43,119 bases of DNA from a virus, in the UHGV virus genome UHGV-0017337. One strand, written 5' to 3'. The notes under the pieces are model-generated. The model did no database searches, was not told the origin of the DNA, and worked only from the letters and a program-made list of their open reading frames with translations. Positions 2,732 through 3,931 of the stretch are shown in pieces. Each line of letters starts with the position of its first letter. Position 1 is the stretch's first letter. The position numbers were made by a program, and so were the translations under genes.

Positions 2732-3071
2732 TTACAGTAAGATGAATGATAGAGATATTGACCGCCTTGTTTTGAAAGTTATTTACGGTGTTCATACTGA
2801 CGATAAAGATATCCAAGGTTGTTTGTCACGGGGTGGTTTCAAATATACCACTAATCCGACTAATGCAATGCCGATTATTATTGAAAATAAAATTAGTATT
2901 GTTTCAACAGATTCATCATGGATCGCTTTACCTGACAATGCTGTTATTGATGGAATTACTGGTGATGCGACAGAAATGATTTATGTGGATGACTCATGTG
3001 TTATTCACGCTAACCCACTCCGTGCCGCAATGATTGTGTTCTTACAGATGCAGGAAAACAACCATGATTAA
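2724..3071 (+). CDS. Hypothetical protein (115 aa)
   Basis: ORF track; stop overlaps next start (ATGATTAA). Confidence 0.35.
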   Translation: MTDYSKMNDRDIDRLVLKVIYGVHTDDKDIQGCLSRGGFKYTTNPTNAMPIIIENKISIVSTDSSWIALPDNAVIDGITGDATEMIYVDDSCVIHANPLRAAMIVFLQMQENNHD

Positions 3072-3417
3072 ACTCTGTTACATTGCCGGGCCTTATCGTG
3101 CTGACTGTGCGCTTAAAACATCCCGTAACGTGTCACGTGCTGAACAGGCGGGTAAACGACTGGCTTTACAACGTCCGGGATGGTTCCCGGTTATCCCTCA
3201 CAAGAACACCGAATTGTGGGACTTTGACGGCGGTTTACGCAATATACAACCTGAATACTACCTGTCAGGCACGTTAGAAATTATGCGCCGTTGTGACGCC
3301 GTTCTGGTGCTTCCTGATTATCGTCGTTCGTCCGGGACTATTGCAGAAATTGCAGAAGCTGAACGTCTGGGTATTCCTGTGTATTACAGCGTGGAGAGTG
3401 TACCGGAACATGGCTAA
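3064..3417 (+). CDS. Nucleoside 2-deoxyribosyltransferase-like protein
   Basis: Start moved to Met11 of track ORF 3034..3417 (AGGAAA RBS, stop-start overlap); N-terminal CYIAGPY and C-terminal SSGTIAEIAEAERLGIPV resemble the deoxyribosyltransferase-like Rossmann family. Confidence 0.45.
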   Translation: MIKLCYIAGPYRADCALKTSRNVSRAEQAGKRLALQRPGWFPVIPHKNTELWDFDGGLRNIQPEYYLSGTLEIMRRCDAVLVLPDYRRSSGTIAEIAEAERLGIPVYYSVESVPEHG

Positions 3418-3931
3418 AGACAACTGGGAAACACCGTGGGATTTTATTGATAACGTTTCTCGTGAATTCCCACTTGTTCTTGATGTGTGTACCGATGGTT
3501 CTAACGCTAAATGTTCGTTGTTTATCACTGATAGTCTGAATAAAGACTGGCATTCGATTGTTCAAAGTAATGGTGGTGGGTTCGTCTGGTGTAACCCACC
3601 GTACAGCGATCCGTCTCCCTGGGTTAATAAAATAATAACCACTGTTCATCAGGGAACTGGTTCGTTATTACTCGTGAACGCTATGACGTCTGCAGACTGG
3701 TTTCACAAAGCGCTGACACATTGTTCAGAACTATGGGTATTCAAAGGTCGTATTGCGTTTGTAGATCCTGATAACGGGTTACCAGCAGGAGGAAATAATC
3801 GTTCACAGGTAATGTTTATTTTCGACCCGTATCGTATCGGTGAATGTAAAACAAGATCTGTAAAAGTTTCCGACTATCAGAAAATAAAAAGACAAGCGTA
3901 CAGGAGTTATTGTTATGTCCACAATCGTTGA
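3410..3931 (+). CDS. DNA N6-adenine methyltransferase (phage Dam-like)
   Basis: Start at Met40 of track ORF 3293..3931, overlapping upstream stop (ATGGCTAA); N-terminal NWETPWDF and catalytic NPPY motif. Confidence 0.55.
   Translation: MAKDNWETPWDFIDNVSREFPLVLDVCTDGSNAKCSLFITDSLNKDWHSIVQSNGGGFVWCNPPYSDPSPWVNKIITTVHQGTGSLLLVNAMTSADWFHKALTHCSELWVFKGRIAFVDPDNGLPAGGNNRSQVMFIFDPYRIGECKTRSVKVSDYQKIKRQAYRSYCYVHNR

Follow-up and report, generated by a model that had tools for sequence, protein, structure and literature searches.

Orphan adenine methyltransferases of the phage Dam family (PF05869/TIGR01712), such as Dam of phage T1 and Dam of Stx-converting phages, are single domains of about 170 aa, encoded among early accessory genes without a cognate restriction endonuclease. 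In the superfamily of the nucleoside 2-deoxyribosyltransferases (NDTs), the true NDTs (PF05014, EC 2.4.2.6), such as the enzyme of Lactobacillus leichmannii, bind the 5'-hydroxyl by an Asp, and a change at this position goes with phosphorylated substrates. DNPH1/Rcl and MilB/BcmB/BlsM are superfamily members that act as N-glycosidases on (deoxy)nucleoside 5'-monophosphates, from which they release the free base and (deoxy)ribose 5-phosphate. Human DNPH1 has the triad Y24, D80 and E104, binds the phosphate by S98 and recognises the base by R30 and H56, while in MilB the equivalent of R30, R23, binds the phosphate, S97 stands at the serine position, and the substitution F17Y moves the preference towards deoxyribose (PMC10603095). 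DmtZ, an NDT-family enzyme from phages, hydrolyses dAMP and is also a deoxyribose-5-phosphate transferase; its triad is Tyr/Asn/Glu, and its pocket for the 5'-phosphate carries no charge (PMC12884076). Here I describe a locus in the virus genome UHGV-0017337 (a stretch of 43,119 nucleotides, hereafter the window), in which the gene of an NDT-like protein, open reading frame A (ORF A), overlaps that of a Dam-like methyltransferase, ORF B (Table 1). The two are probably independent accessory genes, a swappable orphan methylase beside a predicted N-glycosidase of the nucleotide pool.

The window belongs to a virulent 9NA-like siphophage of Escherichia coli from the Nonanavirus/Sashavirus group. 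The region shares 96-97% DNA identity with the E. coli phages AVIO78A, KarinMuster (Bas82), PJ16, BDX09P1 and 536P12, 84-90% with the Salmonella phages Sasha, Sergei, Solent and 9NA, and about 81% with several Klebsiella phages. Both ORFs are known kinds of gene and are already annotated in near-identical GenBank phages, ORF A as 'nucleoside 2-deoxyribosyltransferase' or '2'-deoxynucleoside 5'-phosphate N-hydrolase' and ORF B as 'DNA methyltransferase' or 'DNA (N-6-adenine) methyltransferase'. Strong family matches of both, together with the synonymous excess of ORF A given below, mark them as real genes and not chance open reading frames. A first-pass annotation of the window, made from its letters alone, had pointed out the two overlapping frames, and both lie on the plus strand exactly at the coordinates given there; it had also seen in them a possible DNA-modification module with which the phage evades restriction.

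Table 1. Features of the gene chain around ORF A and ORF B (positions in nt of the window).
Feature	Position	Strand	Description
Terminator-like hairpin	259-278		Just 5' of the polymerase gene; simple scan
DNA polymerase gene, 618 aa	299-2155	+	phrog_1252 'DNA polymerase', 1.7e-215; opens the transcription unit
Conserved hypothetical gene, 178 aa	2195-2731	+	phrog_19205, 1.4e-108; 8-nt overlap with the NinX-like gene
NinX-like (DUF2591) gene, 115 aa	2724-3071	+	PF10765 Phage_P22_NinX, 5.2e-05, 24.0 bits (cut-off 22.6); phrog_444, 9.8e-27
ORF A, 117 aa	3064-3417	+	MIKLCYIAGPYR...SSGTIAEIAEAERLGIPVYYSVESVPEHG; modelled NDT fold, DUF7768/DUF4406
S89-S-G91-T-I-A-E95 codons of ORF A	3328-3348	+	[S/D]-x-G-x-x-x-E motif; predicted catalytic Glu E95 at 3346-3348
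8-nt overlap ATGGCTAA	3410-3417	+	ATG of ORF B inside the end of ORF A (TAA 3415-3417); 5' junction of the methylase cassette
ORF B, 173 aa	3410-3931	+	MAKDNWETPWDF...WCNPPYS...YVHNR; N-terminus MAKDNWETPW
NWETP of ORF B	3422-3436	+	Residues 5-9
NPPY of ORF B, catalytic motif IV codons	3593-3604	+	Residues 62-65; N, P and P invariant in the alignment
17-nt overlap ATGTCCACAATCGTTGA	3915-3931	+	Last codons of ORF B, overlapping the beginning of the 77-aa gene; 3' junction; encodes (Y)VHNR
Conserved gene, 77 aa	3915-4148	+	phrog_25980, 1.4e-53; last of the coupled chain, lineage-specific

By its sequence, ORF B belongs to the phage Dam family of N6-adenine DNA methyltransferases and is an orphan enzyme dependent on S-adenosylmethionine. 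It matches PF05869 (phage Dam) with E = 4.6e-32 and 111.5 bits (cut-off 28.1) over profile positions 8-150 of 169, and phrog_111 with 8.8e-48, and its best PADLOC matches are to the 'orphan methyltransferase' class (oMTase, 1.5e-17). Like the members of that family it consists of a single domain of this size, with W-x-T-P, L-D and N-P-P-Y motifs and a full-length profile match, and in an alignment with T1 Dam and six others it keeps all family-invariant positions (W6, T8, L24-D25, W47, W60, N62-P63-P64, R114, F117 and G123). The first-pass annotation had called an N6-adenine methyltransferase from NWETP and NPPY, and with the profile match and both motifs intact that call stands. No restriction endonuclease gene was seen beside ORF B in the window or in the annotated relatives including AVIO78A; its neighbours are the NDT-like gene and the lineage-specific 77-aa gene, as expected of an orphan. 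Copies of more than 95% identity are found in six phage records only, all other matches among 1,998 records falling below 60%. A difference from the rest of the family is that the last five residues come from the overlap with the downstream gene and are common to an unrelated methylase. The enzyme would methylate one short motif in phage DNA during infection, and any protection would be limited to restriction enzymes with this motif in their recognition sites.

ORF B occupies a slot in which methylases are exchanged. The order NDT-like gene, methylase, 77-aa gene holds in all relatives examined in detail, and the middle place is filled by at least six methylase alleles from two Pfam families (PF05869 and PF01555). 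The E. coli phages have the PF05869 allele of 173 aa; PF01555 alleles measure 259 aa in Carvaje, 393 aa in 9NA and Sasha and 506 aa in VLCpiS10a, and those of phi_KPN_H2 (443 aa) and Kpn BU9 (517 aa) align as further long alleles of the PF01555 type. At the 5' junction, ...CATGG is kept in relatives with other methylases and divergence starts immediately after it, and at the 3' junction TATGTCCACAATCGTTGA, which comprises the methylase stop and the start of the 77-aa gene, is conserved. Because of this conserved 3' junction, the PF01555 methylases of 9NA and Sasha end like the Dam-like protein, to which they are unrelated, with the same 17-nt overlap and the C-terminal YVHNR. The long PF01555 alleles are near-identical in the first 125 alignment columns and again after about column 260 but unalignable between, which is consistent with an exchange of the target-recognition region.

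The exchange reaches even the closest relatives. Two IMG/VR contigs, L007 and L008 (IMGVR_UViG_3300045988_038444 and _029198), have NDT-like and NinX-like proteins 93-97% identical to those of the window (97% for the NDT-like protein), and their slot holds a PF01555 methylase, not a Dam-like one. These comparisons show that the slot is swapped by recombination at the gene boundaries, with both overlaps preserved. Since the partner is replaced while ORF A stays constant, a specificity-matched pairing of the two, as in restriction-modification, is ruled out. The candidate role of ORF A as a type II restriction partner was also rejected, as no co-variation is seen: the methylase is replaced among the relatives from Escherichia, Salmonella and Klebsiella, and the ORF A protein stays 89-99% identical in them. 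The free replacement of the partner points to diversifying selection on methylation specificity, and exchange at the slot would be expected if this specificity were tuned to the restriction systems of local hosts.

In its AlphaFold2 model (54 homologues, pLDDT 96.4, pTM 0.89), ORF A has the NDT fold, with a Glu at the nucleophile position and a Tyr in strand 1. NDTs rank first in a Foldseek search with this model (6evs, 7e-5), in agreement with the NDT-like fold that the first-pass annotation had suspected. Its proposal to classify the protein by hidden Markov models gave a divided answer: ORF A is above the cut-offs of DUF7768 (PF24963, 7.2e-09, 36.3 bits, cut-off 26) and DUF4406 (PF14359, 4e-07, 30.8 bits, cut-off 22), but under the gathering cut-off of the true NDTs (PF05014, E = 0.0048, 17.5 bits, cut-off 28.8). 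The match to phrog_355, which is labelled as NDT, is strong (5.6e-26), and nearly all of the homologues listed carry DUF7768 and/or DUF4406. Scans against NCBIfam and PADLOC returned no match, and so no retron-effector or anti-defence family. Against all PDB chains only marginal matches appeared, to BcmB with the single sequence (E = 0.29) and to 1t1j with the family profile (E = 0.04), and no sequence relative of known function was detectable there.

The conserved residues give a more specific indication. Across the 54 homologues Y6, G9, N22, P45, C77, S89, G91, E95 and A99 are invariant, and R12, H46, T70, E72, R76 and D78 are conserved in at least 90%. The motif around E95 aligns to S-P-G-T-H-I-E of the CMP N-glycosidase BcmB (PDB 4jen). 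Y6 and R12 correspond to Y24 and R30 of human DNPH1, H46 to H56 just after strand 2, and S89 and E95, at equal Ser-x-Gly-x-x-x-Glu spacing, to S98 and E104; the set for phosphate and base recognition (Ser before the Glu, Arg at +6 from the Tyr, His after strand 2) is thus present. Six residues before the Glu, where NDTs have the acidic or amide residue for the 5'-hydroxyl, ORF A has the invariant S89, in contrast to a true transferase. DmtZ of the Z-genome phages, a phage enzyme of the superfamily that acts on deoxynucleoside monophosphates (dNMPs), likewise has no Asp or Asn at this position; it differs in that, jointly with PurZ0 and DutZ, it replaces A by Z in DNA, whereas the DNA of the sister phage Bas82 behaves as unmodified and no such genes are annotated in AVIO78A (in the first 50 kb of its 57.8-kb record, to which all statements on this phage's annotation below refer). 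From the DNPH1 group ORF A differs in the absence of a significant sequence match (the best being that to BcmB), in its length of 117 aa against about 150-175, and in having no C-terminal helical extension, which gives DNPH1 its second phosphate-binding serine.

As these residues match the DNPH1/MilB set for the nucleophile and its stabiliser, for recognition of base or phosphate and for phosphate binding, with serine in place of the transferase Asp, ORF A is probably a (deoxy)nucleoside 5'-monophosphate ((d)NMP) N-glycosidase that acts via Glu95. By this analogy it would hydrolyse the N-glycosidic bond of a (d)NMP through a covalent Glu95-sugar intermediate. Its place would then be in the nucleotide pool, where the dUTPase of the phage also works, and not at DNA. 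The name 'deoxyribosyltransferase' that GenBank and PHROG give to the family is probably a misnomer. Selection has kept the protein more constant than its gene: over a core of 110 codons, identity is 91-99% for the protein versus 85-95% for the DNA, and synonymous and non-synonymous codon changes stand at 39:6, 36:7, 31:9 and similar.

The same fold could serve another purpose, with ORF A as an anti-defence enzyme or decoy of the NDT/TIR fold that would break down or bind an immune signal derived from nucleotides, or NAD-related molecules, and has nothing to do with the methylase. Immune systems can use NDT-like domains to deplete adenine nucleotides or NAD, and the gene, which is small, early and well conserved, is very common among phages, the family comprising 16,544 clusters or representatives at 50% identity (E <= 1e-3), or 5,711 at E <= 1e-10. 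I regard this as quite unlikely, as the set of S-x-G-x-x-x-E, Tyr and Arg is the signature of NDT and DNPH1 and the scans for PADLOC and anti-defence families were empty. Phage Bas82, moreover, was without unusual resistance in the BASEL defence panel, a panel that lacked Thoeris and CBASS (PMC11990801).

Bas82 is also the phage that allows the claim of restriction evasion to be assessed, as it carries the same pair, with ORF A 99% and ORF B 98% identical. Spelled out, the reading of the first-pass annotation would have ORF A provide a non-canonical base, or insert it, and form with the methylase a broad restriction-evading pathway. DmtZ, which makes dZMP from dAMP, offers a precedent, PF05014 NDTs are associated with dZ phages, and the two genes are adjacent and translationally coupled. 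The BASEL authors, however, found no recognisable modification locus in Bas82 and a marked sensitivity to restriction-modification systems, and their raw data give plating values of about 1e-5 on EcoKI, 2.5e-4 to 7e-4 on EcoCFT_I, about 2e-7 on EcoRI, 1.7e-6 down to the detection limit on EcoRV, 1e-6 to 9e-6 on EcoCFT_II and 8e-6 to 3e-5 on EcoPI (PMC11990801). A phage with the same pair is thus strongly restricted by six systems of types I, II and III, which argues against broad protective modification. Plating on restriction-proficient hosts and digestion of virion DNA were the tests that the first-pass annotation had named, and the published answers go against it in the sister phage Bas82 and in the relative 9NA, whose virion DNA is cut by restriction enzymes.

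Gene content and sequence composition agree with the plating. No genes for PurZ, DatZ, a hydroxymethylase, DpdA or a glycosyltransferase are annotated in AVIO78A, in accordance with the BASEL authors, and the nucleotide-metabolism genes that are annotated there are the dUTPase and ORF A only. In the window, CTAG occurs 8 times versus about 46 expected; there is no AAGCTT, AGGCCT, AGTACT, CCATGG or TCCGGA, and CAGCTG, ACCGGT and GGTACC have a single site each. For EcoRI and EcoRV no avoidance is seen (16 and 12 sites, respectively), which matches the strong restriction of Bas82 by both enzymes. Avoiding restriction sites this strongly is how a phage behaves whose DNA is unprotected. Together with the interchangeability of the methylase partner, these observations effectively exclude broad hypermodification and leave a joint base-modification pathway very improbable. 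What survives of the evasion claim is its narrow part: a methylase that protects a single motif is plausible, whereas broad protection is contradicted by the restriction of Bas82.

Whether the two genes form a module was addressed by their neighbourhoods in 78 IMG/VR loci with ORF A homologues, in which same-strand DNA methylases of five Pfam families were recorded within 4 kb. Loci were dereplicated at 70% identity into lineages, and the NinX family, that of the gene next to ORF A on its 5' side, went through the same pipeline as a control. A greedy caller of open reading frames over-extended starts in GC-rich contigs and made antisense shadow frames, so that neighbour distances are approximate there. 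The NDT-like family has a methylase within 4 kb in 44 of 78 loci, or 17 of 38 lineages; for the control the figures are 32 of 75 loci, or 11 of 33 lineages (Fisher p = 0.34 between the two by lineage). Initially the enrichment of methylases near the NDT-like family read as a module; this was rejected after the NinX control, and only direct abutment remained nominally enriched. As the control frequency is not different, the regional association is explained by a shared accessory-gene region. In 21 of the 38 NDT-like lineages (55%) there is no methylase within 4 kb at all, and fusions of an NDT-like protein with a methylase were found neither among the over-long ORFs nor among the long family members in a library of 1.84 billion proteins, which contained in-frame HNH_3 fusions and unannotated extensions only. 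With a swapped partner, an equal control frequency and no fusions found, the single DNA-modification module of the first-pass annotation is not upheld.

Some loci in this set have a composition of their own. In L058 and L059 (4218-6038 in each), a PF01555 methylase lies directly 3' of the DUF4406/DUF7768 gene, in the same ORF with a LAGLIDADG homing-endonuclease domain (PF00961, 3.4e-17). In L056 (3470-4393, protein P0374) the order is C5 cytosine methylase, HNH_3 endonuclease and NDT-like gene, the latter two in a single ORF that is either a real fusion or the product of a missing stop codon or a merge in gene calling.

Several points weigh against the reading of ORF A and ORF B as two unconnected accessory genes of the predicted kinds. 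First, a methylase abuts the NDT-like gene in 7 of 38 lineages versus none of the 33 control lineages (p = 0.013), a statistic that depends on rough ORF calling and on one control family only, unadjusted for multiple testing. The abutting methylases come from four Pfam families, and direct abutment leaves room for some link between ORF A and methylation. Second, the chemistry of ORF A rests on motif analogy, as DUF7768, DUF4406 and DUF1937 have no characterised member. The literature found on these three families consists of incidental mentions without functional work, membership in them says nothing on mechanism, and the closest solved structure, 1t1j of DUF1937, is itself without known function. 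Third, for the general-acid Asp of the triad ORF A offers T70, E72 and D78 as candidates; by helix register T70 falls at the expected position (by visual inspection, not superposition), and the acid could be E72, D78 or neither. Fourth, ORF B is divergent. It scores 93.5 bits against the NCBIfam equivalog TIGR01712, slightly under the cut-off of 97.05, and outside its six close relatives, all E. coli 9NA-like phages, identity is at most 39% among the matches listed and about 28-31% to T1 Dam. With such divergence GATC, the obvious guess from the characterised family members, is no more than a candidate target motif. Finally, none of the six BASEL systems recognises GATC, and ORF B may therefore still methylate a specific motif.

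The abutment would find an explanation if ORF A were coupled to methylation in general, and this could take three forms. ORF A could hydrolyse methylated dNMPs from degraded DNA, such as N6-methyl-dAMP (m6dAMP) or 5-methyl-dCMP (5mdCMP), and so prevent their re-incorporation; it could remove S-adenosylhomocysteine, the product that inhibits methylases; or it could counter an immunity that senses methylases, such as retrons with an NDT-like effector. The five methylase families found in the neighbourhoods (PF01555, PF05869, PF00145, PF05063 and PF02384) would fit such a target-independent role, and in the 9NA group the adjacency has outlasted six or more replacements of the cassette. N6-substituted AMPs bind to DNPH1, an enzyme that sanitises modified dNMPs. 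Reports on retrons name phage Dcm and Dam as triggers and describe in the Ec86 effector an NDT-like domain that works as a dimer. However, co-occurrence in the region is no higher than in the control, and more than half of the lineages are without a methylase in reach. The individual forms meet objections of their own: S-adenosylhomocysteine is a riboside, whereas the invariant Tyr6 goes with 2'-deoxyribose substrates in MilB and DNPH1; the retron form lacks a PADLOC match to retron effectors; and against a decoy stand the invariant residues of catalytic type, which argue for an enzyme. I therefore regard a general coupling as unlikely, though worth keeping in mind. The stronger version, in which the DUF4406/DUF7768 protein is the dedicated companion of phage DNA methyltransferases of any type and handles a generic cost of methylation, appears improbable.

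In a further reading, methylation by ORF B would serve mainly the biology of the phage itself and not defence against restriction: recognition of the pac site or packaging, as with Dam of P1, control over when replication or transcription takes place, or avoidance of mismatch repair. Packaging in 9NA-like phages follows a pac/headful mechanism, and as E. coli already methylates GATC, a phage Dam would add little protection in this host. GATC is not avoided in the window, with 139 sites versus 162-187 expected; being neither avoided nor enriched, it is uninformative on the target of ORF B. I give such a role little credence, since replacement by methylases of a different family and the differing central regions of the long alleles are hard to reconcile with housekeeping at one motif. 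An accessory methylase of exchangeable specificity, next to an unrelated nucleotide-pool enzyme, remains the preferred reading.

Five consecutive genes (2195-4148) overlap by 8, 8, 8 and 17 nt, with ORF A in third and ORF B in fourth place; the overlap of the NinX-like gene with ORF A is ATGATTAA. The overlap of the pair, noted in the first-pass annotation, is thus one of four in the chain, and the pair does not follow directly on the polymerase as stated there, the 178-aa gene and the NinX-like gene lying between. A simple scan found no terminator-like site on the plus strand between 299 and 4148, so that a single transcription unit appears to run from the polymerase gene through the five small genes. 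The 178-aa gene has no Pfam match and is kept at the same position in all relatives examined. The 77-aa gene occurs only in 24 records of 9NA-like phages, which are all GenBank records of the group, with 86-100% identity, and in the relatives examined it lies directly 3' of the methylase slot whichever methylase is present. In a distant 9NA-like contig of IMG/VR (L014, IMGVR_UViG_3300036785_000282, 4344-5084), with 68% and 66% identity to the window in the NDT-like protein and the Dam-like methylase, respectively, the Dam-like methylase and the 77-aa homologue are fused in frame in an ORF of 246 aa. This could mean that the 77-aa protein works with the methylase, or equally be an accident of the junction.

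Further along the window, a tailspike gene (5548-7515, plus strand; TSP1/Gp66 N-terminal domain PF18668, 9.8e-21) is transcribed away from the lysis cassette (4128-5548, minus strand) and towards the tail-tip gene (7966-10497, minus strand), a layout that is the same in 9NA. Between tailspike and tail-tip genes lies a decayed gene of a single-strand-binding protein (SSB; about 7560-7960, minus strand). It keeps an OB-fold half with a match to PF00436 (7.8e-16) and, at the C-terminus, the canonical ...DDIPF tail, while the frame is truncated N-terminally and has at least two in-frame stops. A DNA identity of 88-91% to the SSB genes of Skatevirus-type phages, among them ASO78B, suggests that the gene arrived with an exchange of the tailspike module.

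As it stands, the finding of such a pair matters little, since orphan phage methylases and nucleotide enzymes of the NDT superfamily are both familiar. Its useful additions are the correction of a likely misnomer, the anatomy of the slot, a negative control and the link to published restriction data. The NinX control removes most of the apparent association between the NDT-like and methylase families. The methylase slot is a clean example of cassettes that are swapped at the gene boundaries and stay translationally coupled on either side. The misnamed family is very large (at least 5,700 clusters at 50% identity, E <= 1e-10), and its residues point to a nucleotide N-glycosidase. If the weak excess of direct abutment is real, it would suggest a link of nucleotide-pool hygiene, or of the evasion of methylase-sensing immunity, with phage DNA methylation.

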